A DNA stretch of 64,000 nt from Abditibacteriaceae bacterium (lineage in GTDB: Bacteria; Armatimonadota; Abditibacteriia; Abditibacteriales; Abditibacteriaceae), in contig JANPJS010000034.1 in the NCBI GenBank assembly GCA_031425655.1, positions 9,625 to 73,624 of the forward strand. Reading direction: 5' to 3'. The notes under the pieces were generated by a model that was not told the DNA's origin, ran no database searches, and worked only from the letters and a program-made list of their open reading frames with translations. Both the position numbers and the translations under genes were made by a program. This document shows positions 3,712 to 57,449 of the stretch, in pieces. Each line of letters begins with the position of its first letter. The stretch's first letter is position 1.

Positions 3712-3775
3712 TTTTCTGCCGACAATCGGTCAGGTTTTCTCAGCGGCTTCTTTGCGACTTTGCGTCTTTGCGAGA
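3664..3775. repeat. long hairpin element (CAAAG-word subfamily)
   Basis: Perfect 30-bp inverted repeat: tctcgcaaagacgcaaagtcgcaaagaagc (3664-3693) and gcttctttgcgactttgcgtctttgcgaga (3746-3775). The 52-nt spacer contains the murG stop codon. Confidence 0.9.
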
Positions 3776-3791
3776 GATTAAAAAGGAAACT

Positions 3792-19000: not shown

Positions 19001-19297
19001 CACGTCATTTTGCGACCGCAGCCGGGCGGCGGCCTGACTTTCGCGCGCGGCGGCTTCGATTCGATACGCGGGCGCATCGAAAGCGGCTGGAAAATCGAAA
19101 ACGGCGTCTTTTCCTACAACGTGACGATTCCCGCCAACGCGACGGCGACGCTGTATTTGCCCGCCGCGCTGACCGCGAAAATCACCGAAGGCGGCAAAGC
19201 AGCGGATAAAGCCGACGGCGTGCAGTTCGTCAAGCACGAAAACGGCTCCGCGATTTACGAACTCGGTTCGGGCAGCTACGCTTTCGCGGTGCGATGA
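16076..19297 (+). CDS. alpha-L-rhamnosidase, glycoside hydrolase family 78
   Basis: Signal peptide, then LRCEYKVNPVGVGDAQPRLSW and the catalytic-domain hallmark EVPTDCPQRDERLGWMGDAQIF. 1073 aa. Confidence 0.9.
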   Translation: MKKLIAVFALMLAVAQSSRAELSPANLRCEYKVNPVGVGDAQPRLSWIVESKQRAEKQTAYQILAASSLENLKAKRGDLWDSGQIKSNATAQIVYGGKPLGSAQTAWWQVRSWDKNGKSSPFSAPAQWTMALLDPATEWKASWINLEALPDQPKSDGASPKGANWIWFPEDDPAVRAPVATRYFRLVVNVPADIGIAAAKLSLTADDRWTVWFNGKELGKSGTDEFAWRDFKTFDVAKLVKTGPNLIAIEATNATASPAGLLAKLTIESAQWGKHEFVSDATWKSAQTAPDGWQNVAGDAGWQSAKVLAAYGGGPWMDTVGAGGAKTGAPPPSAFLRRTFRVTKPLRRATAYATALGLYELHVNGARVGDDVFTPGWTDYKKRVYYQTYDVTPLLKQGANAVGAILGDGWATGHDGNGGRDRYGLHRPHFSGQIVLDYADGTREVVGSDTNWKAAYGPIVEQDLLDGEFYDATQEQAGWDTPQFDDAAWQKPDMIAAPQIKIEAYPGVPVRRQLELKPKKMTQPKPGTYVFDLGQNMVGWARLNNITAPRGTKIRLRFAEMLNADGTIYTTNLRGARCIDEYTCRGGAPETWEPRFTFHGFRYVELTGVPTATADSVTGIVVHSQMPMTGEFACSNPLVNQLQSNIQWGQRGNFLEVPTDCPQRDERLGWMGDAQIFVKTSTYNADVAGFFSKWMVDVEDGMRGDAFPDVAPDICCGAGTPAWADAGVIVPWTIYQVYGDTRILEKHYGAMARYIEWIRKSNPDLIWKNRGSDYGDWLSIAADTPKDVLGTAYFAYSTSLLAKIAHALGKNDDAQKYEALFNGIKAAFNKNFVTADGRIKGDTQTDYVLALRFNLLPDDKRAQAAQHLVDDIAKKGNHLSTGFVGVGYLNPVLTQTGHGDVAYQLLLQDTFPSWGYSIRQGATTIWERWDGYRADKGFQDPGMNSFNHYSLGSVGQWMFESVAGIDADPNQPAFSHVILRPQPGGGLTFARGGFDSIRGRIESGWKIENGVFSYNVTIPANATATLYLPAALTAKITEGGKAADKADGVQFVKHENGSAIYELGSGSYAFAVR

Positions 19298-19304
19298 AAG
19301 GAAC

Positions 19305-19886
19305 ATGAGTGAACAAGGCGCCTTTGACCTCGCGCACGAGTGGACAGGCGATGCTTTAAGCGAATCGGAATCGGCGGCGTTTCAAGAGGGCAAAGCCAAA
19401 GCTCTGCAAAAGCTGTTGCCTTACGCGCATCCTTCTTCTAACCAAGAGGCGGCATCGGTTGTTTTGGAACTGAATGGTAGCGAATTCGATTTCCGTGTCG
19501 GCGAGAGATTTGAAGTGATGGTGTTGGTGCCTGCGAATCGTGCCGTAGCACACTTGCACACTCATCCGGATGCGGAGCCGCAGAGCTTGGAAGATTGGCA
19601 GGAATTTCTCCCAGTCCATGCCGTTCGCCAAGCGCACGTCATTGCGCCCAACGCGACGTATTCGCTCCATAAACCACCGGCATGGGAAAATACGGTGCGT
19701 CCGATTCGTCGCAGAGAGATCGCCGTCGCCTATTTTGAGGTTTATCAAGCTGCTCAACTGGACGCGCTGCGGAGAGGCGAAAACGCGGAGAACTTGGAAG
19801 TGGACGAAGCAGCGGCGCGGAACATGGCCGCCCGTTTTGGCATACTTCATTGCGTTGGCATCCGACGAGGAGAGGAAAGGCCATGA
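19305..19886 (+). CDS. hypothetical protein with JAB/MPN-like motif
   Basis: Starts 7 nt after the GH78 stop. Contains AHLHTHPDAEPQSLEDWQEF, which resembles the JAMM signature HxHP-x6-S-xx-D (cf. RadC AHNHPSGDPTPSREDIELT) but with a loop one residue shorter. Confidence 0.55.
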   Translation: MSEQGAFDLAHEWTGDALSESESAAFQEGKAKALQKLLPYAHPSSNQEAASVVLELNGSEFDFRVGERFEVMVLVPANRAVAHLHTHPDAEPQSLEDWQEFLPVHAVRQAHVIAPNATYSLHKPPAWENTVRPIRRREIAVAYFEVYQAAQLDALRRGENAENLEVDEAAARNMAARFGILHCVGIRRGEERP

Positions 19887-20053
19887 AAGAAAAGATCACA
19901 AATCTTCGCATGGATACTAAAGCGGGGCAAGAGAAGCAGCACAAAATCAAGAAGGCAGCTTTGGCATCAGCAAAAGCAAAATTCGCGGCGGAACAGAGAG
20001 ACGGCGCCCTCCCCGCCACACACACTGCCACGCCGTTGAGAAAAGTCGCCTAA
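19883..20053 (+). CDS. small basic hypothetical protein (56 aa)
   Basis: Its ATG overlaps the stop of the preceding ORF (ATGA). The sequence is Lys/Ala-rich (MKEKITNLRMDTKAGQEKQHKIKKAALASAKAKFAAEQ...). Coding status unproven. Confidence 0.35.
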   Translation: MKEKITNLRMDTKAGQEKQHKIKKAALASAKAKFAAEQRDGALPATHTATPLRKVA

Positions 20054-20095
20054 GCGCGCATCTATGGTTGAAGCGAAGCCGGAAGAAGAACAACC

Positions 20096-20305
20096 ATGAG
20101 CGAAGAAGTCGTTCCTTACAACTGCGATGGGATGGAAAGCCGCAAGCGGCAGAAGGCGACGCCGCAAGCTATGCGCGCGCGCATTGACGCGGAAGAGAAG
20201 GCCGCCAAAGCCTATTCAACACAGAAAGCCTCATCGAGCCGCGTGAAAATCGAAGCTGGACAAATCGAAACCCCGTCGCAAAATCCCCATCGCAAGGCCG
20301 CATGA
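20096..20305 (+). CDS. small basic hypothetical protein (69 aa)
   Basis: ATG ORF in the same orientation as the two preceding ORFs. The predicted protein is charged and looks disordered. No motif recognised. Confidence 0.3.
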   Translation: MSEEVVPYNCDGMESRKRQKATPQAMRARIDAEEKAAKAYSTQKASSSRVKIEAGQIETPSQNPHRKAA

Positions 20306-20415
20306 GTCCATTGAAACGGCGCCTGCCAATCGTCGCAGAGCTGCTCCGCCTGCCGCCCGCCAAAGACAGATAATTTTGAGCGGGCGTTTTTCATGGTTCA
20401 CGTTACCGACGCATT

Positions 20416-20656
20416 ATGCTGAAACACCTTCTCGCGCTTTTAATTTCGTTCGTTGTCGCGGCGCCTTCGATTCAATCCGAGGCCACATCGAAAGCAGTTG
20501 GAAGCTCGAAAATGGTGCCTTTTCCTGCAACGTGACGATTCCCGCCAATACGACGGCGACGCTGCAAAATCCGACGGCGTGCAATTCGTAAAGCAGGAAA
20601 ACGGCGCCGCGATTTATGAGCTTGGTTCGGGGACTTATTCGTTCGAGGTGCGATGC
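20416..20656 (+). pseudogene. remnant of a GH78-type gene: signal-peptide-like start fused to a degraded, frameshifted copy of the rhamnosidase 3' end
   Basis: 20458-20656 aligns with 19047-19297. Compare FDSIRGHIESSWKLENGAFSCNVTIPANTTATL with FDSIRGRIESGWKIENGVFSYNVTIPANATATL, and DGVQFVKQENGAAIYELGSGTYSFEVR with DGVQFVKHENGSAIYELGSGSYAFAVR. The copy has an internal deletion, a frameshift and a lost stop (tga to tgc). The ATG at 20416 encodes MLKHLLALLISFVVAAPS. Confidence 0.8.
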
Positions 20657-20775
20657 GGTCGTGTTTGGCCGGGGGAACCAATGCTGAACCTGAAATCTAA
20701 GCTATCCCTCCGCCGGATTTGTTTGAACGATTGCGAGCCGCGTTGCAAAAGAACGTCTGAAAAGTCACCTTGCCA

Positions 20776-20810
20776 ATGGCCCGCAAAATCATTCAAACCG
20801 GCGTGTTGGT
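20776..20810 (+). repeat. direct repeat copy A: first 12 codons of an FAD-oxidoreductase-like gene (MARKIIQTGVLV)
   Basis: atggcccgcaaaatcattcaaaccggcgtgttggt matches 21529-21563 (atggcacgaaaaatcatccaaaccgacgtgttggt) at 31 of 35 positions. Copy A is cut off by the stop of the 20810-21475 gene. Confidence 0.8.
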
Positions 20811-21475
20811 CAGTTGATAATCTCGTTCGGCCCGGAATAAGTTATGGGGCCTGGGGGAAAACACGGGAAGAGTTCCAGGCCAAAGCCGTCGTTCAACACT
20901 TCGTCGCTGTAAACATCCGCCATGACCAGTTCCCTGCGGCCAAAATAGTAAATCCACTCGAAATCGTAGCGCACCTGAATCCAAGGATAAAGTTCCTCAT
21001 CGTCATCCTCCGAAGGAGGTGGGAGTTCTTTAATTTTGATTGTAAAGGGGCCAACCAGCTTCCAAATAATCGGACGTTCCGCGTCCGGAGGACTGAATCC
21101 TGCCAATTGTTGATACCAACCAGTTCCATCAGGATTGAATTGCCATACGACATCTACTCCGCGCCAGCCGCCCACAGGCCCCTCTCGAAACTTGATTCGA
21201 TGACCTTTTATGGAACGCAGGGTGAACCCACTGATGAGCGTTGGAATAAGCTTTTGCAGTTCTGTTGGTGGTAGTTTGGCCCAAGGAAGCAACGCGCCAC
21301 ATTGGCACTGCTTAAAGTCATGGGGATATGGCTCTCCGCATTGGGCGCAATTGCCGCAAGATGGCTTCACCCAAGGCAGGATCGCGCCGCATTGGCACAA
21401 TTTGGATGTGTAGGCGTTTTTCGCGCCGCATACATCGCAATTTCCGCCGATTGGATTCTTTTGCATTGACTCCAT
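20810..21475 (-). CDS. hypothetical protein: tandem zinc-ribbon N-terminus + unknown C-terminal domain
   Basis: The N-terminus has three CxxC...CQCG..LPW units (CDVCGAKN..CQCGAILPW, CGNCAQCGEP..CQCGALLPW). No match was recognised for the C-terminal ~150 aa. GC is visibly lower than in the neighbours. Confidence 0.65.
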   Translation of the reverse strand: MESMQKNPIGGNCDVCGAKNAYTSKLCQCGAILPWVKPSCGNCAQCGEPYPHDFKQCQCGALLPWAKLPPTELQKLIPTLISGFTLRSIKGHRIKFREGPVGGWRGVDVVWQFNPDGTGWYQQLAGFSPPDAERPIIWKLVGPFTIKIKELPPPSEDDDEELYPWIQVRYDFEWIYYFGRRELVMADVYSDEVLNDGFGLELFPCFPPGPITYSGPNEIIN

Positions 21476-21528
21476 TGGTTGGCGCTTTCGTGTGGCTTAA
21501 GTTGTAGTAAAACGGAAATAGAGATTTT

Positions 21529-21563
21529 ATGGCACGAAAAATCATCCAAACCGACGTGTTGGT
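21529..21563 (+). repeat. direct repeat copy B of the FAD-oxidoreductase-like gene start
   Basis: See 20776-20810. Copy B continues into DVLVCGGGGAG (a dinucleotide-binding GxGxxG) before the frame runs into an unrelated signal peptide. Confidence 0.8.
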
Positions 21564-21903
21564 GTGTGGCGGTGGCGGCGCTGGGCGCGCGTGCTGGGAA
21601 AGGAAATCCATGTTGAAATTGCGTTCCCTTTGTCTGTTGGCCTCGTTGTCCACGCCGCTCTGCGCGCAGGAACTGACGATGAAGCAAATCGTGCCGCAAA
21701 TCTCTGAGGCGCCGCTGAAAAATCCCGGCATGGGCCTCTATCTTGGCGGCACGCTGAACGAAAAAGAGCTTTCGCCCGATTTATGGCCCACACAAATCAT
21801 TGACATCGGCTATTTCCGCGACGATTGGGCCAAAATTCAGCCGCATGGCCCCGGAACGGCGGATTTTGACGCGTATTTAAGCCGATTTTCGACCTTTGGG
21901 TGA
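21529..21903 (+). pseudogene. chimeric ORF: ~21 codons of an FAD-oxidoreductase start fused to a truncated secreted glycosidase-like N-terminus
   Basis: MARKIIQTDVLVCGGGGAGRA is followed by MLKLRSLCLLASLSTPLCAQ (signal peptide, ATG at 21610) and ~75 further residues before a stop. Downstream, 21900-22115 shows only out-of-frame protein-like fragments (e.g. GELAVEKGSLESRPQIALRLDEVKLELVESP). Confidence 0.6.
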
Positions 21904-22135
21904 ACAAACTGCACCGGCAAGTGGCTGACGAACGCGAACACCGACAAATACGACACGACGAAATTGGGCACATGGCAACGGCTCGAAGCCTGAGTCTAAA
22001 CCACGCCGCAAACCGCGCGTGGCGAGCTGGCCGTCGAAAAAGGCTCGCTCGAATCGCGCCCGCAAATCGCGCTGCGCTTGGACGAAGTGAAGCTCGAATT
22101 GGTCGAATCGCCGTGACGGTTAAACTCAGGGTGAG

Positions 22136-22405
22136 GTGAACGAAATGGCAGTCGCAACGGTAGAAGAGATTTATGAGCAGGTGAAGGCTTTGCCGCTGGA
22201 AGCTCGATTGCGCCTGGTTGAACGAATCGCGCATGATGTGTCGCGGCAAGTGGGCGAGGAAGAACCGAAGATAAAGCGCCGTTGGCGCGATATTCGCGGC
22301 ACAGCAGTCGGATTATTAGACGGCGAGGACGCGCAAGAATGGGTGTCGCGCACGCGGCGCGAAGGCGACGCGCATCGGGAAAAGCAATGGAAGCGTGAGC
22401 CGTGA
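22136..22405 (+). CDS. vapB: type II antitoxin (VapB-like partner of the PIN gene)
   Basis: 89-aa acidic/basic protein. Its stop overlaps the GTG of the PIN gene (GTGA). The N-terminal EEIYEQVKALPLEARLRLVERI resembles addiction-module antitoxin components. An alternative ATG lies at 22145. Confidence 0.6.
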   Translation: MNEMAVATVEEIYEQVKALPLEARLRLVERIAHDVSRQVGEEEPKIKRRWRDIRGTAVGLLDGEDAQEWVSRTRREGDAHREKQWKREP

Positions 22406-22859
22406 ACATTGCCGACGCGCTGGCGCCCGGTAGCCGCTTGTTTCTTGATTCGGCTCCCGTCATTTATTACGTTGAACGGCATCCCCATTATTTGTCACTG
22501 GTGGATGTGTTGTTCGATGCGCTTGACGACGAGACTATTGAAGCAGTAACTTCGCCCGTTACATTGGCGGAGTGCTTGATTCTTCCGCTGCGGGTTGGCA
22601 ATACGCTTTGCGGCGAGAATATGTCGCAGTCATTACCAATGGCCCTGGCATCGAATTTTGGCCTCTGAATGATGTTGAGGCGCAACACGCCGCCGACCTC
22701 ACAGCGCGCTACAATATCCCGTTGCCTGACGCCTTTCAAATTGCCGTTGCCATCGCGTCCGGCTGCGACGCATTTCTTACCAACGACCTCACGCTGAAAC
22801 GAGTGCGGGAAATCACGATTTTGGTGCTGGACGAACTGGAACCGCCAACCTCTACATGA
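22402..22859 (+). pseudogene. vapC: PIN-domain toxin (VapC-like) interrupted by a single frameshift
   Basis: The N-terminal frame (22402-22668) carries FLDSAPVIYY and LAECL. The C-terminal frame (22572-22859) carries LPDAFQIAVA and FLTNDLTLKRV. All four PIN acidic positions are present, but split over two frames that switch near 22600-22615. Confidence 0.65.
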
Positions 22860-24346
22860 CCCAACCGCTGATTCAAATTGAAAGTCTGAGCAAATTTTAT
22901 GGCGTGGTGCGGGCGCTCGAAGGCGTCAGCTTCGATATTCGCGCGGGCGAAATTCACGCGCTCGTCGGAGAAAACGGCGCCGGGAAAAGCACTTTAATCA
23001 AGGCGTTGGGCGGCGCGCACGCGCCGAGCGAAGGCCGCGTTTTGGTGAGTGGGCAGCCGCTTTCGTGCGGCGTGACGGCTTCGGAAGCGGCGGGCATCGC
23101 CACGATTCACCAGGAAATCACGGCGTTTCCGCATCTCAGCGCCGAAGACAACATTTTCGTGGGCCGCGAGCCGCGTTTGGGCGGAATTTTCATCAATCGC
23201 GGCCAAATGCGGCGCGAAACGCGGGCGCTTTTGACACAACTTGGCGAAAATTTCGATTCGGCGCGGCCTGTTGGCGAACTCAGCGTGGCGCGGCGGCAGA
23301 TGGTCGGCTTCGCCCGCGCGCTGTCGCAGAAAAGCAAATTGCTGATATTAGATGAGCCAACGGCTTCGCTGTCCGAGCGCGAATGCGTGGCGTTGTTCAA
23401 AGTGATTCGCGCGCTGCAAAGCGACGGCGTGGCGATTCTCTACGTTAGCCACCGTTTGGACGAAATTTTTGCTTTAGCCAACCGCGTCACGGTTTTTCGC
23501 GACGGGCGCCACGTCCAAACCTGCGACATCGGCGAAGTGGACAAAGCCGGTTTAATTCGCTTGATGGTCGGGCGCGAAGTCGTCGAAGAGCGCGATGAAT
23601 CGGGGCGCGGCGTGCCGGGCGAAGCGGTTTTGCAGGTCGAAAACTTGTCGCGCGAAGGCGCTTTTCGTGACGTTTCGTTCCAAGTGCGTGCCGGAGAAAT
23701 CGTCGGGTTGGCCGGCCTCGTTGGCGCCGGACGCAGCGAAGTGGCGCGGGCGATTTTCGGTGTAGACAAACCGACAGCGGGCGTCGTGAAAATCAGCGGC
23801 GCGATTTTGCCGTCCGGTTCGGTGGGAAAAGCGGTCGCGCGCGGTGTGGCTCTGGTGCCCGAAGACCGCCAGCATCAGGGGTTGGTTTTGGCGATGACGG
23901 TCGGCGAAAACCTTACGCTTTCGGTGCTGGAACGCCTGGCGCGCGGGCCGGGGCGCGACAAAAAAGCCGAGCGCACAGAGATTGCGAAATTGATGAAAGA
24001 CCTGTCGGTGCGCGCCGCCGGGCCGGATATTCCGGCGCAATCGCTGTCGGGCGGAAATCAGCAAAAGTTGGTGGTCGGTAAGTGGCTGGCTTCGCAGCCG
24101 AAAGTTTTGATTTTAGACGAGCCGACGCGCGGCGTGGATGTCGGCGCGCGGGCCGAGGTTTATCGCTTGATTCGTCAGTTGGCCGGGCAGGGCATGGCGG
24201 CGCTGGTGATCTCGTCCGACTTGACCGAAATCCTCGCCTTATGCGACCGCATTTTAGTCATGCGCGAGGGCGTCGTTTCCGGCGAGCTGCCGCGCGAAGG
24301 CGCCACGCAAGAGAAGATTTTAGAATTAGCTTTGCCGGAAAAATAA
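22856..24346 (+). CDS. sugar ABC transporter ATP-binding protein with duplicated ATPase domains (RbsA/MglA/RhaT type)
   Basis: Two Walker A sites (GENGAGKST, GLVGAGRSE) and two signature regions (LSVARRQ, LSGGNQQK). 496 aa. The ATG overlaps the vapC stop (ATGA). Confidence 0.9.
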   Translation: MTQPLIQIESLSKFYGVVRALEGVSFDIRAGEIHALVGENGAGKSTLIKALGGAHAPSEGRVLVSGQPLSCGVTASEAAGIATIHQEITAFPHLSAEDNIFVGREPRLGGIFINRGQMRRETRALLTQLGENFDSARPVGELSVARRQMVGFARALSQKSKLLILDEPTASLSERECVALFKVIRALQSDGVAILYVSHRLDEIFALANRVTVFRDGRHVQTCDIGEVDKAGLIRLMVGREVVEERDESGRGVPGEAVLQVENLSREGAFRDVSFQVRAGEIVGLAGLVGAGRSEVARAIFGVDKPTAGVVKISGAILPSGSVGKAVARGVALVPEDRQHQGLVLAMTVGENLTLSVLERLARGPGRDKKAERTEIAKLMKDLSVRAAGPDIPAQSLSGGNQQKLVVGKWLASQPKVLILDEPTRGVDVGARAEVYRLIRQLAGQGMAALVISSDLTEILALCDRILVMREGVVSGELPREGATQEKILELALPEK

Positions 24347-24353
24347 GACTTTC

Positions 24354-24457
24354 AATGGAACACGGGCCTTCGGCACACGGATTACACGGATTTTCACGGT
24401 TTAAATCGAAAAAACCGTGAAAATCCGTGGCCGTTTCCGTGAATTCCGTGTTCCATT
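24354..24457. repeat. long imperfect hairpin (CACGGAT-word type) between ABC ATPase and permease genes
   Basis: aatggaacacgg...cacggattttcacggttt pairs with aaaccgtgaaaatccgtg...ccgtgttccatt. The outer and inner parts pair and the middle has diverged. Each arm is built of cacgg(a/t)tt-like words. Confidence 0.85.
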
Positions 24458-24483
24458 AAAAACTTTGCGCTCGACCGCTTTTT

Positions 24484-25449
24484 ATGACTCTCGTTAAACG
24501 CATTTTTCTCCAGCGCGAATACGGCGTCGCGGCGCTTTTGCTGTTGATGATCGCTGTCGTGACGGCAGTAGATCACAATTTTTTGTCGCGGCAGAATTTT
24601 CTCGATATTCTCATGGCGACGGTGCCGGTCGCTATCGTGGCGTGCGGGCTGACATTCGTGATCGTGCTGGGCGAAATTGATATTTCCGTCGGCTCGCTGC
24701 TCGGCCTCACGGCAGTAGTTTTGGGGCTGCTGACTTCGCTCGATCATGCGAAACAGCCGGTTGTCGTCGGCGTCGCGGCGGTCTTGGTGCTGGGCACGTT
24801 TGTCGGCCTTGTCAACGGTGTATTAGTCGTGTTCGGGCGCGTGCCTTCGATTATCGTCACGCTGGGAATGCTGACGGCGCTCAAAGGCTTGATGGTGATT
24901 CTGATGAACGGCGAGAACATCCAGAATTTGCCGGACAGCGTGCGCTTTTTGGGCACCGGAACGCTGGTCGGTGTGCCGATTCCACTGCTTGTCGCGGCGG
25001 TCGTCATCGCTTTTTCTGCTGGATTAGCGGTTTATACGCCGCTTGGCCGAAGGCTTTACGCGGCGGGCAGCAATCCGCACGCGGCGGAGTTGGCCGGGCT
25101 TTCGGTGCGCGGATTGAAGCTCTTTGCTTTCACTTACACAGGCTTTCTCACAGCGGTAGCCGCTCTGGTGACGGCGCCGCGCTTGTCGGTCATTGAAGAC
25201 AGCGCCGGCAAAGATTTGGAGTTGATGGTCGTGACAGCGGTCGTCGTCGGCGGCACGTCGCTGAGCGGCGGACGCGGCACCATCGCCGGCTCGCTGCTGG
25301 CGGCGATTCTTCTGGGTTCGGTCAGCACAGCGCTGATCTTTCTCAAGTTCAGCGCGGCCACTTATTGGGAGCGCGCGATTCAAGGCGGATTTATTTTGGC
25401 GGCGGTTTTGGTTGACCACCTGGCGCGGCGCGACGGAGAAACGCCATGA
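24484..25449 (+). CDS. sugar ABC transporter permease (RbsC/BPD_transp_2 type)
   Basis: 321 aa and polytopic. Contains GEIDISVGS and TGGTSLSGGRGT-like motifs typical of ribose/rhamnose-type permeases. Confidence 0.85.
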   Translation: MTLVKRIFLQREYGVAALLLLMIAVVTAVDHNFLSRQNFLDILMATVPVAIVACGLTFVIVLGEIDISVGSLLGLTAVVLGLLTSLDHAKQPVVVGVAAVLVLGTFVGLVNGVLVVFGRVPSIIVTLGMLTALKGLMVILMNGENIQNLPDSVRFLGTGTLVGVPIPLLVAAVVIAFSAGLAVYTPLGRRLYAAGSNPHAAELAGLSVRGLKLFAFTYTGFLTAVAALVTAPRLSVIEDSAGKDLELMVVTAVVVGGTSLSGGRGTIAGSLLAAILLGSVSTALIFLKFSAATYWERAIQGGFILAAVLVDHLARRDGETP

Positions 25450-26357
25450 AAAAGCGATTTGCCCACGAAACCGCGCTTTTAGCGTTACTTTTCGCGCTTT
25501 TGGCTTACGCGAAATTCACCGAGCCGAAATTTTTAGCTCTTGATACGCAGCGCAAGCTGCTCGAAGAATTGTGGGAATTGGCCTTGATTTCCATCCCGAT
25601 GACGCTGATTATCCTGACTGGCGGCATAGATTTATCGGTCGGTTCGGCGATGGGCTTGTGTGCCGTCGTCATGGGAATGAGCTTTCAGCGCGGATATCCC
25701 CCGGCACTGTGCGCGCTGCTGGCTTTAGTCGCCGGATTGGCGGCGGGCGCGCTGAATGGATTTTTCATCACGCGCGTGAAAGTCCATCCACTTCTGGTGA
25801 CTTTGGCGACTTTGGCCGCTTTTCGCGGCGTGGCCGAAGGCATGAGCGGCGGCGCGAGCGTTGAAGGCTTCGTCGAGACGTTTAAGCTGCTGCGCGACCC
25901 GGTTCCGGCGTTGATTTTCGTCGCTTTCGTGGCAATCGCCGCGTGGTTTCTGAACGCGGCGCCCGGCGGCGTGTGGCTGCGCGCAATTGGTTTCAACGAA
26001 ACTTCGGCGCGCTTTTCCGGATTGCCGGTTGATCGTCTAAAACTGCGTCTTTACGCGCTGTCGGGCCTCGCGGCGGGCGTGGCGGCTGTGCTTTATGCAG
26101 CGCGGTTCAATACGGCCAAAGCTGACATCGGCGATGGCAAAGAATTGGAAGCCGTCACCGCTGTTGTGTTGGGCGGCACCAGCATTTTCGGCGGACGCGG
26201 CCACGTTTTCGGCACCGTTCTCGGCCTGTTACTTATCCACGAGACGCGCGAGTTCGTAAAATGGCATTGGAGCAACGAATATATCGCCATCGTTCTCGGC
26301 GTGCTGTTGATTTTATCGGTCTTGATGAATCGCTTTTTGGGCGACGGCGAATCTTAA
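25446..26357 (+). CDS. sugar ABC transporter permease (second subunit)
   Basis: 303-aa paralogue of the previous gene (GGIDLSVGS, LGGTSIFGGRG). Start and stop overlap (ATGA). Confidence 0.85.
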   Translation: MKKRFAHETALLALLFALLAYAKFTEPKFLALDTQRKLLEELWELALISIPMTLIILTGGIDLSVGSAMGLCAVVMGMSFQRGYPPALCALLALVAGLAAGALNGFFITRVKVHPLLVTLATLAAFRGVAEGMSGGASVEGFVETFKLLRDPVPALIFVAFVAIAAWFLNAAPGGVWLRAIGFNETSARFSGLPVDRLKLRLYALSGLAAGVAAVLYAARFNTAKADIGDGKELEAVTAVVLGGTSIFGGRGHVFGTVLGLLLIHETREFVKWHWSNEYIAIVLGVLLILSVLMNRFLGDGES

Positions 26358-26382
26358 TTCCGGCCCCATTTTAGGAGAAATT

Positions 26383-27423
26383 ATGCGTTTACTTGAGCGA
26401 GTTGTTCCTGTTGTATTGCTGGGCTTAGCCATTGCGGGTTGCGGCAGCAATCCTCCGGCGGAGACCTCGAATTCGTCTGGCCCGGCGCCCGCTTCCACTT
26501 CGCCTGCCAGCGGTGAAAAAATCACCATCGCGCTGTTGCCCAAGCAAAAGGGCATCGCGTATTTCACTTCTTGCGCCAAAGGCGCCGAGGAAGCCGCCAA
26601 AGAACTCGGCGACGTGGAACTGATTTACGACGGCCCGACCGACGGCAAAGCGGAAAAAGCCGCGTCCATGATTGACCAGTGGGTGCTGAAAGGCGTGAGC
26701 GCCATCGCGGTTTCGCCCAACGACCCGCAAGTCTTGGCGCCGGCCATGAAATCGGCCAAAGAAAAAGGTATCAAAGTGCTGACATGGGACGCCGACGGCG
26801 ACAAAGCCGGGCGCGACTGGTTCGTCAATCAAGCGACGGCAGAGCAAATCGGCAACGCTCTGGTGGACACTCTGGCTAAGGACATCGGCGGCAAAGGCAA
26901 AGTCGCGATCATAACCGCCACGCTGACCGCAGCCAACCAGAACGAATGGATGAAATACATGAATATCCGCTTGAAAAAGTATCCCGGCATGACGTTGGTA
27001 GCGACTAAACCCTCGAACGAGAATCAGAAGATCGCTTTTACCGCCACGCAGGATTTGATGAAGGCGTATCCCGATTTGAAAGGCGTTTTCGCCATCAGTT
27101 CGGCGGCGTTTCCCGGCGCGGCGGAAGCGATTAAACAGTCCGGCAACAATGGCAAAGTCATGGTCACCGGCCTTTCGACGCCCAACGACATGAAAGCCTA
27201 TGTCAAAGGCGGAACCGTGAAATCCGTCATTCTGTGGAACACCGTTGATCTCGGCTATCTCGCGGTTCAGGCGGCGCACGCGGCTGTCAAAGGCGACCTC
27301 AGAACGGGCGCCAAAACCTTCAAAGCCGGGCGTTTGGGCGAAAAGAAAATCGCCGGCGACAACGTGCTGCTCGGCGATATTTTGGTCTTCACTAAAGACA
27401 ACATTGACAAATATGATTTTTAA
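26383..27423 (+). CDS. periplasmic sugar-binding lipoprotein (RhaS/LsrB-like family)
   Basis: Lipobox LAIAGC. The body (ITIALLPKQKGIAYFTSCAKGAEEAAKELG...ELIYDGPTDG...GVSAIAVSPNDP...GIKVLTWDAD) resembles rhamnose/AI-2 binding proteins. Rhamnose is suggested only by the nearby GH78. Confidence 0.8.
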   Translation: MRLLERVVPVVLLGLAIAGCGSNPPAETSNSSGPAPASTSPASGEKITIALLPKQKGIAYFTSCAKGAEEAAKELGDVELIYDGPTDGKAEKAASMIDQWVLKGVSAIAVSPNDPQVLAPAMKSAKEKGIKVLTWDADGDKAGRDWFVNQATAEQIGNALVDTLAKDIGGKGKVAIITATLTAANQNEWMKYMNIRLKKYPGMTLVATKPSNENQKIAFTATQDLMKAYPDLKGVFAISSAAFPGAAEAIKQSGNNGKVMVTGLSTPNDMKAYVKGGTVKSVILWNTVDLGYLAVQAAHAAVKGDLRTGAKTFKAGRLGEKKIAGDNVLLGDILVFTKDNIDKYDF

Positions 27424-29191
27424 ACGGTCGCCCCAATTTGGCGCAAAGCTCGCTTTCGCAGGCTCCTTTTTCAAAAGCCGATTCTTCGTTAGCAGGCTTT
27501 GCGCGGTTGTCGCCTTGTTTTTAGGCGCAGGTCAGGTGAAATGTGCCGAAATTCCGCGCCCGACGCTGGTGCGCGATGTCGTCGGCGTAACGCACGTCGC
27601 CGGGAAATACAACTTTACCGACAGCGATTTTCTCAACGAAGGCGCCGATAAAATCCTCGAACTCGGCTCGCGCGTGATTAAAGTCTGGTTTATGAAACCA
27701 GACACGTCATATCCCTTCAACTCGCAGTGGCCGCCAGCAAAAAACTTGGTTGAACTGGCGCAAACGCCTTATTTTAAAACGCTTTTTGCCAAGCCGTTTA
27801 CAACTTTCGTGCTGGAAACTTACGTGCCGGGGCGCGGCGATCATTACTACAAAAACGGCATGACGGCGGCTCAGATTCAAACCGAAAGCGACGACTTTTA
27901 CACGCTGACAAAGCACCTTTTGCAAACCTACAAAGGCAGCGGCAAAACTTTTGTTTTGCAAAACTGGGAAGGCGATTGGTCGCTGATTGGCGCCGGCTCC
28001 AATGATGAGCCGACGCAAACACAAATTGACGGCATGATTCAATGGCTGAACGCACGTCAGGACGGCGTGGACAAAGCGCGTCGTGAGTTGGGCGCAACCG
28101 GTGTGACCGTCGCGCACGCGGCGGAAGTTAATTTGATCAAGCGCGCGATGGACGGCAAAAAATCGGTCACCAACGACGTTTTGCCCAAAACGCACTGCGA
28201 TTTATATTCGACTTCGGCCTACGATATTCAAGACAATGCCAAAACGCTGATGGCCGGTTTGGATTATTTAGCTTCTAAAGCGCCGGACAGCGCGCTTTAC
28301 GGCGCCAAAAACATCTTCGTCGGCGAGTTTGGCTTTCCCGAAAACGGCGCCGGAATCGGGCCGCAAAAACAACGCGACAAAACGCGCGCGGCCTTGCAGA
28401 CGGCTTTGCGCTGGGGCGTGCGCTATGCGCTTTACTGGGAACTATATTGCAACGAAAAAGCGCGCGAATTTGAAGGCAAACCGCGAAACGAAGATATGCG
28501 CGGCTTCTGGCTGATACGCCCCGATGGGTCGAAGGCGCCGCTGTGGGATTACTTGAAAAAGATTATGGATTGGAACGTGGACGAGGCAGCACTGCCTTTT
28601 ATCGAAGACATTCGCGCGTTTGAGGCGGCGGATGCGAAGGCGTTTCCCGCGCCCAATCAAATTGTCTTCGTCGGCAGTTCCAGCTTTACCAACTGGGCGA
28701 ACATGGCGCGCGATTTAGCGCCGTTTCCTGTCGTGCGGCGCGGTTTTGGCGGCTCGCAAATGGACGACAGCTTGCGCTACGCCGGGCGCGTCGTGATTCC
28801 CTATAAACCCAAAATGGTCGTGGTTTACGCGGGCGATAACGACCTTGCGAATGGTCGCACGCCGCAGGCCATACTTGATGATTTCAAAGCGATGGTTGCC
28901 AATATTCACGCGGCGCTGCCCGACACCAAAATCGCTTATCTTTCCATTAAACCGAGCATCGCGCGCTGGCATTTAATCGAGAAAATTCGCCAGGCCAATG
29001 GTCTAATCCAAAACTGGACGATTCAGGATGCGCGCCTTTCTTACATTGACATTTTCCCGGCCACGCTTGGCGCGGATAATCAGCCAAACCCCGACATTTT
29101 TCTCGAAGATAATCTGCACATCAACCAAAAGGGCTACGATTTGTGGGCGCAGGTCATCAAAGCGCATTTAGCGCAGAACTTTCAACCTTAA
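27413..29191 (+). CDS. secreted bifunctional-looking protein: clan GH-A-like TIM barrel + C-terminal SGNH/GDSL esterase
   Basis: The in-frame ATG at 27413 gives a signal peptide; the track ORF start 27245 overlaps the previous gene. VLQNWEGDW and FVGEFGFPE resemble the GH-A acid/base and nucleophile. SGNH blocks are present: VFVGSSSF, GFGGSQ, VYAGDND, DNLHINQKGY. Confidence 0.75.
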   Translation: MIFKRSPQFGAKLAFAGSFFKSRFFVSRLCAVVALFLGAGQVKCAEIPRPTLVRDVVGVTHVAGKYNFTDSDFLNEGADKILELGSRVIKVWFMKPDTSYPFNSQWPPAKNLVELAQTPYFKTLFAKPFTTFVLETYVPGRGDHYYKNGMTAAQIQTESDDFYTLTKHLLQTYKGSGKTFVLQNWEGDWSLIGAGSNDEPTQTQIDGMIQWLNARQDGVDKARRELGATGVTVAHAAEVNLIKRAMDGKKSVTNDVLPKTHCDLYSTSAYDIQDNAKTLMAGLDYLASKAPDSALYGAKNIFVGEFGFPENGAGIGPQKQRDKTRAALQTALRWGVRYALYWELYCNEKAREFEGKPRNEDMRGFWLIRPDGSKAPLWDYLKKIMDWNVDEAALPFIEDIRAFEAADAKAFPAPNQIVFVGSSSFTNWANMARDLAPFPVVRRGFGGSQMDDSLRYAGRVVIPYKPKMVVVYAGDNDLANGRTPQAILDDFKAMVANIHAALPDTKIAYLSIKPSIARWHLIEKIRQANGLIQNWTIQDARLSYIDIFPATLGADNQPNPDIFLEDNLHINQKGYDLWAQVIKAHLAQNFQP

Positions 29192-29247
29192 GCCGCACCG
29201 TCGGGAACCGCATTTGCGCCCGCGTGTCGTTGAATGCGAACTTATTT

Positions 29248-29272
29248 GGGCAGCTTTCCCGCTGCCCTTTTT
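29248..29272 (+). terminator. intrinsic terminator
   Basis: gggcagc tttccc gctgccc followed by ttttt, 57 nt after the stop at 29191. Confidence 0.65.
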
Positions 29273-29288
29273 GCATTTGGAGATTCTC

Positions 29289-31100
29289 ATGGCCCGAAAA
29301 AACGACCGCAATCGCGGCGGCGATAACAACGATTTCGACTCCTCCGACGACATCAATTTCAGCAACAGCCCGTTTCAAGGCTTGCCCGAAACGCATTTGC
29401 AATCGTCGGCTCTGCTCGACGAAATTCTGACGAATTATCCGCACCCCGACACGCGGGCGCGGCAGTATTTAATGCTGTTGCGTCATCAGTTGGCAACCGA
29501 CGACAATCAACTCGAAGAAGCACGTCAGGCGCTTCAGGAATTCGAGGAGGTTTATAACAAGCTCACGCAACCGGCCAACCGCATCGGCGTTTACATCGCC
29601 AAATTAGATGGCGACAAGCCGAAAAGCAAAAAGCGTAAGCTGCCGTTTCAATCGCAGGAAGCGGCGCCCAAAGAAAACCATCTCATTGCGGTTGGCGATC
29701 AGGAGTTCATCGTCGGCGCCGATCCGATGCTTGAAGACAGTGACTTCGCCGCCGGCACGCGCGTGACGGTCAACGAAGCCTACGTTATCGTCGGCGATTT
29801 AGGCCCGGCGACCAACGGCCCGGTCGTGAAAATCAGCGAAGTTTTGGACGATGGTCGTCTGCGCGTGGCGATGGACTCTCAGGGAATGCAGTCGCGTCTT
29901 GTCTATCGCGGCGATTCGTTGAAAGAATTGGATTTAAAAGCCGGCGACGAAGTTCGCATGGAGCCGAATTTCAAAGTCGCGCTCGAACGCTTCGGGCAAA
30001 GCGAAAACAAAGAGTATTTTCTGGACACGGTGCCGGAGCTTCCCTGGGAGAAAATCGGCGGTCAGGAAGAAGCGATTGAGCTTATCAAAGACACCATCGA
30101 ATTGCCGCTGATTTACCCCGAACTGTTCGAGCGTTTCGGCAAAAAGCCGCTTAAAGGAATCCTGCTTTACGGCCCGCCGGGCTGCGGTAAAACGCTCATC
30201 GGTAAAGCGACGGCTTATAATGTCACGCGCGCCTTCAACGACCGCACCGGGCAAGAGCTGAAAGAGTATTTTATGCTCATCAACGGCCCGCAGATTCTCA
30301 ATATGTGGCTGGGCGAAACCGAGCGGCAGATTCGGGAAATCTTTCAGGTCGCGCGCGAAAAAGCCAAGTCGGGCCACTTGGTTTTCATCTTTATTGACGA
30401 AGCCGAAAGCATTTTACGCACGCGCAGCGCCGGGCGCGGCGGCTATATGCAAAACACCATCGTGCCGATGTTTTGCGCTGAAATGGATGGACTTGTCGCT
30501 TTAGAAAACGTTATCGTGATCCTGACCAGCAATCGCCCGGATTACATTGATCCGGCGATTTTGCGCCCCGAACGCATTGATCGCAAAGTCAAAATCCGCC
30601 GCCCGGACAAAGCCAGCGCACGCCAGATTTTCGATATTTATCTGCGCAAAGACTTGCCGTATTCGCCGGATTTGTTGAAAGAGTTCGATGGCGATGTCGA
30701 AAAAGCGCGGCAGGGCTTGATAGATCACGCGATGGAAAAAGTGTTCCGCAAAGCGCCGGACACCGAATTTGTCGAGGTTTACACGCGCAGCGGCGGCGTC
30801 GAAACGCTGCACTTCAAAGACTTGCTCAGCGGCGCCTTAATCATGAGTTTGGTGGAGCGCGCCAAAGACTTCGCCATCAAGCGCAGCATTGACGTGAAGA
30901 GTTCCAACGAAGGCATCAGCCGCGACGACATGGCGCGCAGCATCGAAAGCGAGTTCAAGGAAAACGAGATTTTCCCCAAGACCGATAATCTCGAAGATTG
31001 GCTGAAATTGCTCGATTACGAGCCGGAAAACGTGGTGACCATCAAGCCGATTCGTCCCGGCGCGAAGGAAAAATACACCGCGCGCAACGGCGTGATTTAA
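29289..31100 (+). CDS. arc: Mpa/ARC-type AAA+ ATPase (proteasome-associated ATPase homologue)
   Basis: ATG at 29289 (MARKNDRN...). Coiled-coil-like N-terminus, OB-like middle, Walker A LLYGPPGCGKTL, Walker B IFIDEAES. Regions collinear with my recollection of M. tuberculosis Mpa include NVIVILTSNRPDYIDPAILRPERIDRKVKIRRPD, EFDGD..., HFKDLLSGALIMSLVERAKDFAIKRSI and EFKENEIFPKTDNLEDW. It ends ...KYTARNGVI rather than GQYL. Confidence 0.85.
   Translation: MARKNDRNRGGDNNDFDSSDDINFSNSPFQGLPETHLQSSALLDEILTNYPHPDTRARQYLMLLRHQLATDDNQLEEARQALQEFEEVYNKLTQPANRIGVYIAKLDGDKPKSKKRKLPFQSQEAAPKENHLIAVGDQEFIVGADPMLEDSDFAAGTRVTVNEAYVIVGDLGPATNGPVVKISEVLDDGRLRVAMDSQGMQSRLVYRGDSLKELDLKAGDEVRMEPNFKVALERFGQSENKEYFLDTVPELPWEKIGGQEEAIELIKDTIELPLIYPELFERFGKKPLKGILLYGPPGCGKTLIGKATAYNVTRAFNDRTGQELKEYFMLINGPQILNMWLGETERQIREIFQVAREKAKSGHLVFIFIDEAESILRTRSAGRGGYMQNTIVPMFCAEMDGLVALENVIVILTSNRPDYIDPAILRPERIDRKVKIRRPDKASARQIFDIYLRKDLPYSPDLLKEFDGDVEKARQGLIDHAMEKVFRKAPDTEFVEVYTRSGGVETLHFKDLLSGALIMSLVERAKDFAIKRSIDVKSSNEGISRDDMARSIESEFKENEIFPKTDNLEDWLKLLDYEPENVVTIKPIRPGAKEKYTARNGVI
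31030..31100 (+). repeat. direct repeat copy 1: last 71 nt of the arc gene
   Basis: Identical to 31530-31600 at 68 of 71 positions. Differences are at 31076 c/t, 31087 a/g and 31099 a/g. The copies are exactly 500 bp apart. Confidence 0.95.
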
Positions 31101-31103
31101 CAA

Positions 31104-31145
31104 CAGAGCGGGCCAACGCATTATGCAGCGGCCCGCTCTGTTTTT
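31104..31145 (+). terminator. intrinsic terminator after arc copy-1 end
   Basis: cagagcgggcc ... ggcccgctctg followed by ttttt. Confidence 0.75.
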
Positions 31146-31176
31146 GAAGGGCTATAATCAATAATGGTGATGCCAG

Positions 31177-31530
31177 ATGAAGCAAATTCTTTTCTCACTT
31201 TTGCGTTTTGCAAACCTTGCATACATGGGTTTTTCTGACCTTCGGCAATGGGAAAAAATCAGGGCACAGGGTTCGGCGCGTTTCATTTTTTCGCGCAGTA
31301 TTGTGATGACCTGTTGGTGGAGCGCGCTTATCGGTTCTTCCTTTTACATTTGGGGAGACCCTATTTCCTTCAGCCCCAAAGGCATTTTGATTTTATTTGG
31401 GTGTTCCTATCCAATGGGTTTGATTTCGGCCTTCGGAGCATGGGGCGATTGTGAAACGTGGTATCTCAAAAAGCGGAATGAAGAATCCAAGCCTGCCACG
31501 GACAAAAACGGCAACTCCGCAAACGCCTGA
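31177..31530 (+). CDS. small hypothetical membrane protein (117 aa) carried on the low-GC insert
   Basis: Two or three hydrophobic segments (FIFSRSIVMTCWWSALIGSSFYIW, GILILFGCSYPMGLISAFGAWG). My hand count gives about 45 % GC over 31141-31500. TATAAT at 31153-31158 lies upstream. The stop tga (31528-31530) abuts repeat copy 2. Confidence 0.55.
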   Translation: MKQILFSLLRFANLAYMGFSDLRQWEKIRAQGSARFIFSRSIVMTCWWSALIGSSFYIWGDPISFSPKGILILFGCSYPMGLISAFGAWGDCETWYLKKRNEESKPATDKNGNSANA

Positions 31531-31600
31531 CGTGGTGACCATCAAGCCGATTCGTCCCGGCGCGAAGGAAAAATATACCGCGCGCAGCGGCGTGATTTGA
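31530..31600 (+). repeat. direct repeat copy 2: orphaned duplicate of the arc 3' end (encodes ...VVTIKPIRPGAKEKYTARSGVI-stop)
   Basis: See 31030-31100. It is followed by the convergent-gene terminator at 31619-31648. Confidence 0.95.
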
Positions 31601-31618
31601 GGCTGCCGGAGCAAAAGC

Positions 31619-31648
31619 AAACGGGAACAGAAAAGTCTGTTCCCGTTT
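31619..31648. terminator. bidirectional intrinsic terminator
   Basis: aaacgggaacag aaaagt ctgttcccgttt with an A-rich 5' flank and a T-rich 3' flank. It lies between repeat copy 2 and the stop of the convergent 31663-32202 gene. Confidence 0.75.
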
Positions 31649-31662
31649 GCGTTTGTGTCATT

Positions 31663-32202: not shown

Positions 32203-32312
32203 AAAAACTCCTGTGAGCGTTAATTTATCAGGCCTCTGTTTCCGGCAGATTAAAGATTTTCGTGAATTCTCTGGGTTTTTACTCGAAAAAGATGACAGGC
32301 ATCGAAAAGCGA

Positions 32313-57426: not shown

Positions 57427-57449
57427 CAAAAACGTCTCTGCGGTGAAAA

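Follow-up and report, generated by a model that had tools for sequence, protein, structure and literature searches.

Gene gain at recombinase-free hotspots is mostly put down to scarless double crossover within the core genes on either side. The minimal mobile elements of Neisseria, small recombinase-free cassettes between conserved genes that Snyder, Saunders and colleagues reportedly found to be exchanged by transformation and homologous recombination, are said to have homology on both flanks and no gene-end duplication. A process that displaces the end of a gene has already been described for rhs and type VI secretion system (T6SS) loci, and has been made experimentally at lacZ. C-terminal displacement at rhs leaves downstream partial repeats, low-GC DNA and decaying arrays, and has been proposed to proceed, without a recombinase, by homologous recombination through circular intermediates that carry a patch of homology (Jackson et al. 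2009; PMC2935791); the sequential displacement of effector–immunity modules of the Vibrio cholerae T6SS has been ascribed to homology-facilitated illegitimate recombination (HFIR; Kirchberger et al. 2017; PMC5361080); and Escherichia coli circles with one-sided homology to lacZ yielded gene-end duplications of 109–950 bp in 56 of 60 integrants (PMC3240628). Insertion of e14 or phage 21 into icd, by contrast, is integrase-mediated and provides a substitute gene end, leaving icdC behind (PMC13626634).

We analysed a 64-kb window, a 64,000-nucleotide stretch of an Abditibacteriaceae genome, in which a first-pass annotation had picked out three small low-GC cassettes, each bracketed by a direct duplication of the end of its host gene. 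Aligning the three repeat pairs, as that annotation had proposed, showed that all are genuine and far exceed chance; apart from the GH78 and arc pairs, no direct repeat of more than 60 nt with at least 80% identity occurs anywhere in the window. The low GC content held for the DNA enclosed by the arc pair (47.6%, within the lowest 0.1% among windows of the same size) and by the pair of FAD-oxidoreductase-like fragments (50.4%, within about the lowest 4%), and was not clear for the GH78 pair (55.2%, where the window as a whole averages 56.7%). Pfam scans of 44 ORFs across the window found no integrase, excisionase or transposase, in keeping with the absence of a recombinase noted at first pass.

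The intact arc gene, encoding a proteasomal-type AAA ATPase (29289–31100, plus strand; Pfam AAA and Prot_ATP_ID_OB), hosts the first pair, and the structure described in the first-pass annotation was recovered in full. Its final 71 nt (31030–31100) recur as a displaced 3′ end (31530–31600, plus strand) that remains in frame and stops at TGA; positions 31030–31098 and 31530–31598 are identical at 67 of 69 nt, with mismatches of the types C/T and A/G, and the match is 68 of 71 when the stop codons (TAA versus TGA) are included. Enclosed are T1, a terminator hairpin directly 3′ of arc (31098–31152, plus strand; −28.8 kcal/mol, z −5.4), and a cargo segment (31153–31530, plus strand; 46.6% GC) that consists of a leader, TATAATCAATAATGGTGATGCCAG, and a 117-aa ORF, o117 (31177–31530), a two-helix membrane protein with the motif WEKIRA.G.AR. 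T1 represents the ancestral arc-terminator type and is kept after arc in two relatives (L020 and L062).

A comparator for this locus was reached solely via a distant o117 relative: scanning genome and metagenome collections for the arc protein brought up no same-species comparator, the best matches having 86% and 76% amino-acid identity and almost no flank synteny, and a word-indexed protein search with o117 gave zero matches. In that comparator, the close relative L172, the same genes flank the locus and arc is followed directly by a T2-type terminator and o179. The window’s copy 2 is contiguous with this post-arc context and is alignable to it together with the bidirectional terminator T2 (31617–31650), o179 (31663–32202) and the region upstream of o179 (31612–32273 overall, minus strand; 81% to L172 7532–8278). 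L172 thus has the empty site for the arc insertion, supplying one of the comparators called for at first pass; none was found for the other two pairs. With T1 after copy 1, as in L020 and L062, and L172-type context after copy 2, the window joins two haplotypes, T1-type and L172-type. The two arc genes are 91% identical in nucleotide sequence, evenly along the gene up to the stop codon, and sliding identity against L172, L020 and L062 revealed no imported tract; this evenness sits more easily with a short circular patch than with an extended HFIR tract, and is compatible with import of either side.

The association of o117 with arc ends extends beyond the window. Relatives of o117 are P0011 (43% identity), P0012 and P0014, and its leader also precedes the relatives in L171 and L172. 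L171 carries a stand-alone series of arc end, hairpin, TATAATCAA leader and o117-like gene, in which the o117 relative is again trailed by an arc-end fragment; both this fragment and the window’s copy 2 keep the arc frame and stop at the homologous position. That the pairing recurs between genes only 43% identical may point to a more systematic cause than chance.

The second host is a GH78 alpha-L-rhamnosidase gene (16076–19297, plus strand; Pfam Bac_rhamnosid domains, with the C-terminal domain to residue 1041), which, like arc, is left intact because one repeat copy completes its reading frame, as the first-pass annotation had stated for both. Its final ~250 nt (19046–19297) recur, as proposed, in degraded form around three co-oriented ORFs, in blocks of 85% (19046–19153 versus 20457–20564) and 83% (19208–19296 versus 20567–20655). 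The displaced end (20409–20655, plus strand; residues ~975–1073) has decayed, with a 52-nt deletion and TGC in place of the stop codon TGA of copy 1, and its protein-level similarity to GH78 extends back to 20409, corresponding to residue 975. Mismatches are of all types; counted over the three codon positions they number 6:6:20, and of the codons changed 15 are synonymous and 14 non-synonymous; the distribution departs from equal thirds (p = 7e-4), while the third-position excess (p = 0.045 against 46%) is only marginally above that of in-place duplication with one selected copy.

The GH78 cargo (19305–20305, plus strand) comprises o193 (19305–19886), o56 (19883–20053) and o69 (20096–20305), all with relatives in other loci. 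o193 starts 7 nt past the GH78 stop codon, bears the motif HLHTHP..S..DW and has seven relatives apart from the window’s own sequence, three of which (L170, L164 and L165) are trailed by o56-like and o69-like ORFs. Pfam, PHROGs, NCBIfam and PADLOC returned nothing for any cargo ORF, and a profile search of PDB sequences with o193 gave nothing meaningful; the best Foldseek match of its AF2 model is a weak one to a RadC JAB domain (E 0.15), with one of five models confident. The cassette begins 0–10 nt past the stop codon of GH78, sucD, a PSD-family gene or an AsnC/NirDL-like gene, and because it sits behind these four different hosts, homology to one gene cannot explain its first arrival at each. 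An R-M pair is found upstream of the cassette in the window.

The same architecture proved recurrent in other genomes, at arc, sucD, accA, uvrB, gap and GH4. Duplicated arc 3′ ends surround unrelated cargo in L021, L092 and L055; sucD ends are duplicated in L166 and L168, with o193 relatives directly after sucD; accA scars occur in L027 and uvrB scars in L046 and L048; and the gap (L131) and GH4 (L139) scars are short tandem-type gene-end duplications. Among the cargo are a 2-hydroxyacid dehydrogenase, an ankyrin protein, PIN, XisH/XisI, a VapBC-like pair and ORFs without a curated-family match, and Pfam found no recombinase in the cargo of L021, L027, L055, L092, L166 or L168. Displaced ends are stacked in L168 (sucD twice, in the order sucD, cassette, sucD end, cassette), in L027 (three accA copies) and in L171; the window itself has no such stack. 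Partial repeats vary from 35 to about 300 nt in length and inserts from 0.4 to 3.8 kb, and at arc, GH78, sucD, accA, uvrB and gap the protein end is conserved, without replacement by a new domain.

In all cargo-bearing pairs checked, namely the three in the window and those of L166, L168, L021, L092, L055 and L046, similarity ends at most about 10 nt from a coding-sequence boundary. The other boundary lies 30, 57, 69, 80 or 151 nt before the gene end in five genomes with arc scars; boundaries that differ in this way for the same host gene argue against a site-specific element. Decay of the displaced end is seen as a 10-nt deletion in L166 sucD, as an indel in L021 and, in L092, as a remnant of only 35 nt. 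The L055 pair is a mosaic, 97% identical over the first 100 nt and 65% in the final 51 nt, where a serine codon has changed from TCC to AGC; comparing its two tails with relatives gave no indication of the native one, and copy 2 is followed by a Pup-ligase gene, as arc is in most loci. For L021, L127 provides the empty site, and in both L055 and the L127/L021 comparison the displaced end lies in native synteny.

We consider it probable, though well short of certain, that these scars arose by additive one-sided homologous integration that displaced the 3′ (or 5′) end of a gene. A segment from a diverged relative would bring the end of a conserved gene together with its donor neighbours and recombine with the resident gene through that end homology, its other end being joined illegitimately inside the terminal region of the resident gene; alternatively, and with the same product, the segment would circularise and enter through one Campbell-type crossover. 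The incoming end would complete the host gene, the cargo would come next, and the resident end, with its own downstream context attached, would be shifted downstream and decay. Judged by their substitutions, the repeat copies differ as two working alleles would. The recombination route (HFIR, a single crossover with a circle, or the repair of a break followed by end joining), the mode of DNA uptake and the identity of the donor copy are matters on which we infer rather than observe; no donor genome was found.

Each described system shares part of this arrangement. As at rhs, partial direct repeats of variable length lie downstream of an intact gene; rhs differs in that its repeats derive from a conserved core that gains a toxin tip and an immunity gene, whereas here what is repeated is the extreme terminus of an ordinary gene, as far as its stop codon, with the protein left essentially as it was and the cargo made up of separate genes further downstream. 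As in the V. cholerae T6SS, one junction is homologous, at a conserved upstream anchor, and the other illegitimate, the old 3′ end and the gene downstream of it are shifted back, and arrays form; retention there is put down to selection for old immunity genes, a point on which tandem and fused o117-family variants are suggestive. None of arc, GH78, sucD, accA, uvrB and gap is a polymorphic-toxin host like those of rhs and T6SS. The lacZ integrants share a gene-end duplication that flanks the insert, formed without a site-specific recombinase and overlapping in size with the 35–300 nt seen here, and differ in being a laboratory construct delivered by conjugation; they provide a precedent for the single crossover over a short homology patch that the first-pass annotation had suggested, and which fits (PMC3240628). 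Its statement that no named class matches did not survive comparison with rhs and T6SS (PMC2935791; PMC5361080), nor did its treatment of the cassettes as one class of element: the three cargoes are unrelated, boundaries vary and the third pair involves a 5′ end. DNA from relatives, entering by one-sided recombination, explains the scars best, rather than a novel kind of mobile element; what is new lies in the host genes (housekeeping genes and glycosidases), the phyla and two recurrent cargo families without a curated-family match.

Non-autonomous site-specific elements, or decayed islands or prophages that supplied a substitute gene end through an integrase encoded elsewhere, as with e14 or CIME, are an unlikely source of the scars. 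The icd/e14/icdC architecture of intact hybrid gene, insert and displaced C-terminal pseudogene matches ours, down to its mostly synonymous differences; the o193 cassette occurs in many contexts, often near restriction or defence genes (L169, L170 and L166); and in L055 a long near-identical block gives way to divergence. e14, however, is 15 kb long with its own integrase and a fixed core, whereas these inserts are uniformly tiny at independent loci, unlike random deletion remnants, the arc boundaries all differ and share no common core, recombinase genes are missing from the bracketed segments examined as well as from the window, and viral contigs contain no o193 relatives.

A purely intragenomic origin, in which deletions eroded a tandemly duplicated segment or the repeats are relics of former tandem paralogues, with no foreign DNA, is similarly improbable. 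The short tandem-type duplications of L139 and L131 speak for it, and L168 resembles a tandem unit of sucD end plus o193 relative, present twice. Material for it is local at arc, since L172 has an o117-like gene ~700 bp away, and a duplication that began 69 nt short of the arc end and ran through the o117 stop codon would yield the o117/arc-end joint. In all cargo-bearing cases, however, the sequences after copies 1 and 2 are unrelated, and tandem duplication would need further deletions ending exactly at stop codons every time; T1 and the L172-type context are alternative haplotypes. The L168 sucD copies are 92% identical, with differences of 4:2:15 by codon position and 16 synonymous versus 3 non-synonymous codon changes, whereas sucD part and o193-relative start together are only 78% identical. 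Tandem arc paralogues, which would have marked the repeats as deletion relics, were seen in 0 of 160 related arc loci, and we rejected the tandem-paralogue reading accordingly.

That the downstream copies are kept by function, as a peptide of the ARC C-terminal tail, as a 3′-UTR or regulatory RNA or as homology arms for excision, seems very unlikely: the window’s arc copy 2 and the L171 fragment do keep frame and stop despite o117 relatives that are 43% identical, but the ends at GH78, L166, L021 and L092 are decaying, a shared start codon or ribosome-binding context is absent, and there is no Rfam match in the window. An assembly or binning artefact, conceivable for an uncultured lineage and for an arc pair that lacks a second assembly because neither arc (603 aa) nor o117 had an identical protein match, can scarcely be credited, since Logan contig L161 reproduces window positions 18061–24166 with 2 mismatches and zero gaps over 6106 nt, so that the GH78 and FAD pairs are not artefacts of this assembly, and since the repeats are shorter than typical reads, their copies differ, and the architecture is present in complete chromosomes (L021 is OZ251992.1) and many unrelated assemblies.

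Several established classes were rejected. A transposon or insertion sequence is at odds with duplications of 35 to about 300 nt, end inverted repeats that are terminator hairpins only and a transposase that was not found; a diversity-generating retroelement with the absence of a reverse transcriptase from the window and with mismatches that are not adenine-specific; and an integron cassette with the lack of a detected integrase and with bounds made of host-gene sequence rather than shared imperfect inverted repeats. A tRNA attachment site was dismissed because the window holds no tRNA, and the Microcystis toxin–antitoxin module with direct repeats is different, its repeats being 152-bp intergenic sequences and not gene ends.

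In a more speculative reading, which we hold as a possibility but doubt, o193 (JAB-like), o117 and the toxin–antitoxin-like modules at accA and uvrB would be adapted recombinase-free cassettes that carry a host 3′ end as a portable homology arm, are released as circles when the flanking repeats recombine and enter relatives again by a RecA-dependent single crossover. If true, it would amount to a general, unnamed route for spreading and stacking accessory, toxin–antitoxin or defence-like genes behind housekeeping genes in Armatimonadota and Abditibacteriota. Under additive one-sided integration, the scars, kept and recurring, would be a readable record of such events at housekeeping genes in two little-studied phyla, and would take 3′-end displacement beyond polymorphic-toxin loci. 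This simple signature, in which the end of a gene recurs within a few kb and similarity halts at the stop codon, can be counted across genomes to gauge how frequent the route is, and the repeated passengers, two unannotated families and toxin–antitoxin modules, bear on how modules move without recombinases.

The third pair lies just downstream of the GH78 scar, where a 120-nt spacer, by inference part of the old GH78-downstream context, leads into the opening 35 nt of an FAD-oxidoreductase-like gene (20656–20810 together, plus strand). This 35-nt stretch (20776–20810) shares 31 of its positions with 21529–21563, a match for which the chance expectation in this region is about 2e-6; the repeat begins exactly at the ATG, and three of the four differences are synonymous third positions. 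The repeat and the enclosed minus-strand zinc-ribbon gene agree with the first-pass annotation, which had assumed an FAD-oxidoreductase gene as host; no intact gene of this kind is present. What is duplicated is a gene start, and both copies are fragments, of 35 nt and about 75 nt: the second (MARKIIQTDVLVCGGGGAG..., 21529–21609, plus strand; no Pfam match) ends after about 25 codons, its truncation being read from the sequence, and is fused there to the beginning of a signal-peptide fragment (from 21610).

The enclosed gene, ZnR221 (20810–21475, minus strand), has two CxxC...CxC zinc-ribbon motifs and a natural stop codon that adjoins repeat copy 1; its full-length orthologue P0001 (226 aa, 67% identity) has other neighbours in OTE_64_metabat_168, a related MAG. 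Farther along, 22136–22859 (plus strand) holds an antitoxin-like ORF and a frameshifted PIN toxin (Pfam PIN, E 1.2e-8, at 22572–22859, preceded by two ORFs with weak PIN and Unstab_antitox matches), probably a VapBC-like remnant, and its frameshifts are also present in the independent contig L161. We considered 21529–22859 as a single frameshifted pseudogene and rejected this in favour of several fragments plus a toxin–antitoxin remnant. The remnant is part of the same patchwork of gene fragments between GH78 and an ABC transporter, within which the third pair is a 5′-end relic.

Alignment of the repeat pairs confirmed that all three gene-terminus duplications reported in the first-pass annotation are present where it had placed them. 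At arc, the gene end at 31030–31098 recurs at 31530–31598 with 67 of 69 nucleotides identical; at the rhamnosidase gene GH78, the end at 19046–19296 recurs at 20457–20655 as two blocks, 85% and 83% identical, the downstream copy carrying a 52-nt deletion and having lost its stop codon, and protein-level comparison extends this relic upstream to 20409. Beyond these two pairs, the 64-kb window has no long direct repeats of high identity. The third pair, 35 nt from the start of a gene resembling FAD-oxidoreductases (20776–20810 and 21529–21563), matches at 31 of 35 positions, a similarity of which ~2e-6 occurrences are expected by chance for the region; this pair duplicates a gene start rather than a gene end, and it has no intact host gene. 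A Logan contig from run SRR20217183 reproduces window positions 18061–24166 with two mismatches and zero gaps, making the GH78 and FAD-oxidoreductase cassettes independent of the window’s assembly. The inserts had also been described as poor in GC, which is clear at arc (47.6%) and in the FAD-oxidoreductase cassette (50.4%) but not at GH78 (55.2%, where the window averages 56.7%).

The arc gene encodes a complete proteasomal-type AAA ATPase whose closest protein matches are in MAGs at 85–86% identity, and this protein assigns the window to Abditibacteriaceae. A comparison locus found by way of a relative of the arc cargo gene o117 (31177–31530), L172, shares with the window two permeases, a binding protein, a GDSL protein, arc and the minus-strand gene o179 (31663–32202 in the window), and its arc is 91% identical to the window’s at the nucleotide level, uniformly over the whole gene. 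In L172, a terminator of the type of T2 (31617–31650 in the window) and then o179 come directly after the arc stop, and the window’s downstream repeat copy, T2, o179 and the region upstream of o179 align to this stretch at 81%; L172 is therefore an empty site for the arc cassette. The window’s upstream copy, in contrast, is followed by hairpin T1 (31098–31152), which is the arc terminator in L020 and L062, so two alternative arc-downstream haplotypes have been joined in the window. A further locus, L171, has a donor-type order of arc end, hairpin, leader (TATAATCAA..GGTGAT..ATG) and o117-like gene; downstream of this o117 relative (43% identity) come an in-frame fragment of the arc end, IKPIRPGQREKYGANRGVI, closed by a stop codon, then a hairpin, the leader once more and another ORF. 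The same cargo family has thus been paired with the arc end twice, with differing joints.

Upstream of o117-family genes the leader TATAATCAA-N3-5-GGTGAT-N5-ATGAA is conserved in three organisms (window 31153–31176; L171, ~595–625; L172, 8290–8315) whose proteins are 30–43% identical. Relatives of o117 are few and share the motif WEKIRA.G.AR and a pair of hydrophobic helices; in two of these relatives, P0012 and P0014, two o117-like units are fused in tandem.

The rhamnosidase gene GH78 is complete, and the 3.5 kb that separates it from the ABC transporter form a patchwork: the o193 module (o193 at 19305–19886 with two small ORFs), the GH78 relic, a 120-nt spacer, a first FAD-oxidoreductase fragment, the minus-strand gene ZnR221 (20810–21475), a second FAD-oxidoreductase fragment fused to a signal-peptide fragment and, at 22136–22859, an antitoxin-like ORF followed by a PIN toxin gene split by a frameshift, a combination suggestive of a VapBC-like remnant. 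Modules of the PIN or VapBC-like kind are carried at the duplicated accA (L027) and uvrB (L046) ends as well.

Such duplications extend beyond the window, as a wider scan revealed in which 2.37 Mb of collected sequence was self-compared and filtered for repeats of the ends of long ORFs. The arc end is duplicated in L021 (71 nt, around a 2-hydroxyacid dehydrogenase gene), for which L127 is the empty site, in L092 (35 nt, enclosing two small ORFs) and in L055 (151 nt, enclosing two genes over 3.8 kb). The displaced copy in L055 is followed by the Pup-ligase gene, which follows arc in most loci, and its two copies form a mosaic: identity is 97% in the first 100 nt and drops to 65% in the final 51 nt, and the changes include synonymous and conservative ones. 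Three copies of the accA end are found in L027, with an ankyrin protein, PIN and XisH/XisI as cargo; the uvrB end is duplicated in L046, around a VapBC-like pair, and in L048, the gap end in L131 and the end of a GH4 gene in L139.

The cargo genes in the window have no match to any curated family; they are real genes. ZnR221 has a full-length orthologue of 67% identity in another context in a related MAG, so the ZnR221 stop codon abutting the repeat is native to the gene. The o193 proteins form a small family with an invariant motif, AHLH.H...S..DW; a single model of the five made with AF2 was confident, and the PDB structure nearest to it, the RadC JAB domain, is a weak match (E 0.15) that tentatively suggests a RadC JAB-like fold. 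Relatives of o193 start 0–10 nt past the stop codon of differing host genes, namely a PSD-family gene (L164), an AsnC/NirDL-like gene (L165) and sucD (L166 and L168). The L166 cassette precedes a degraded repeat of the final ~68 nt of sucD that has lost 10 nt to a deletion and keeps its stop; a terminator comes next. L168 carries sucD, an o193 relative, a small ORF, a 261-nt sucD end, a second o193 relative and a small ORF; its sucD ends are 92% identical, differing by codon position 4:2:15 (16 synonymous versus 3 non-synonymous codons), and are two working alleles rather than a single copy decaying in place.

A repeated segment, (I/V)KVGGKDE..FDAITAH.KA, lies inside the small ORFs downstream of these sucD-linked relatives (L166, 2756–2865 and 3044–3153; L168, 10618–10700 and 12022–12129), and L166 appears to have arisen from an L168-like stacked array by deletion between two of these segments. 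The sole bracket of the L164 cassette is a 9–10-nt direct repeat, ACGAAGTGA (399–408 and 1197–1206), into which the host stop falls; a displaced end eroded completely, or another type of joint, could account for it.

Common rules emerge from these loci. Similarity between copies stops within ~10 nt of the stop codon, or begins at the start codon for the FAD-oxidoreductase pair, and the flanks beyond are unrelated; the opposite boundary, the cargo joint, is genome-specific for one host gene, lying 30–151 nt before the end of arc. The upstream copy completes the host gene, the old downstream context stays with the downstream copy, which decays, and the cargoes are mutually unrelated and lack a recombinase. 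These rules fit one-sided-homology integration of DNA from a diverged relative: the incoming DNA would pair with a conserved gene through homology on one side only, and the second joint would form illegitimately inside that gene’s terminal region or, equivalently, a circularised fragment bearing the gene end would enter by a single crossover. Candidate routes are homology-facilitated illegitimate recombination (HFIR), Campbell crossover, or break repair with end joining. The uniform identity of arc to its L172 counterpart favours a short patch, and the Campbell-type single crossover through a short homology patch suggested at first pass was well guessed, suiting the same rules.

The o193 module sits right after the stops of unrelated genes and o117-type genes recur with arc ends, which keeps alive a reading in which such modules would be adapted, not accidental, passengers. 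There is a modest chance that the recurrent passengers reflect something more organised. Movement of the cassettes by a site-specific element is argued against by boundaries that vary for the same host gene and by the lack of a recombinase: 44 ORFs distributed over the window, scanned against Pfam, gave no integrase, transposase or reverse transcriptase, in keeping with the initial impression. The window contains no tRNA and no Rfam match. Simple tandem duplication, or a paralogue relic, is opposed by the lack of relation between the sequences following each copy, by the presence of two haplotype contexts in the window and by the absence of tandem arc paralogues from all 160 arc loci.

One-sided-homology integration has precedents. 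The architecture and a circular-intermediate model have been published for rhs loci as C-terminal displacement (PMC2935791), and an HFIR model for T6SS effector–immunity arrays (PMC5361080); both match the architecture seen here, so the statement that no named element class fits was not upheld. In E. coli given DNA with one-sided homology, 56 of 60 integrants carried 109–950-bp duplications of the lacZ end (PMC3240628); e14 in icd/icdC is an integrase-driven analogue (PMC13626634). The defining feature of the toxin systems is missing in the window, where the hosts are ordinary genes with conserved ends, as are those of integrase elements such as e14. The window scars are a variant of a known process, belonging to neither the toxin-displacement nor the integrase-element family, in a new setting whose hosts are ordinary genes.

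Several other features of these loci were apparent. A restriction–modification pair lies directly upstream of GH78 (13573–16042; an Eco57I-type methylase of 493 aa and a BsuBI/PstI-type endonuclease of 348 aa), and o193 relatives also adjoin restriction or defence genes in L169 (Eco57I/MmeI-type and GmrSD), L166 (Fic and Mrr) and L170 (an MmeI-like gene start, identified by eye). No Pup-ligase, Pup or proteasome genes lie beside arc in the window or L172; in most Armatimonadota loci arc is followed by the Pup-ligase gene. L172 has an extra ~1 kb (2995–4047), holding a short ORF (199 aa) of the histone-deacetylase family, between its sugar-binding protein and GDSL genes where the window has only 117 nt (27428–27545), a further insertion or deletion nearby. 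A Uma2-family putative restriction endonuclease gene (39455–40021) sits amid the housekeeping genes ispG, rseP-like and dxr. Finally, a 35-nt motif, TCTTTGCGnCTTnGCGTCTTTGCGAGAGA, occurs at 3749–3783 and 57398–57432 with 89% identity, inside or bordering gaps between predicted ORFs at both sites, and weaker matches to it lie at 39424 and 54972; possible identities are a regulatory site and a small repeat element.
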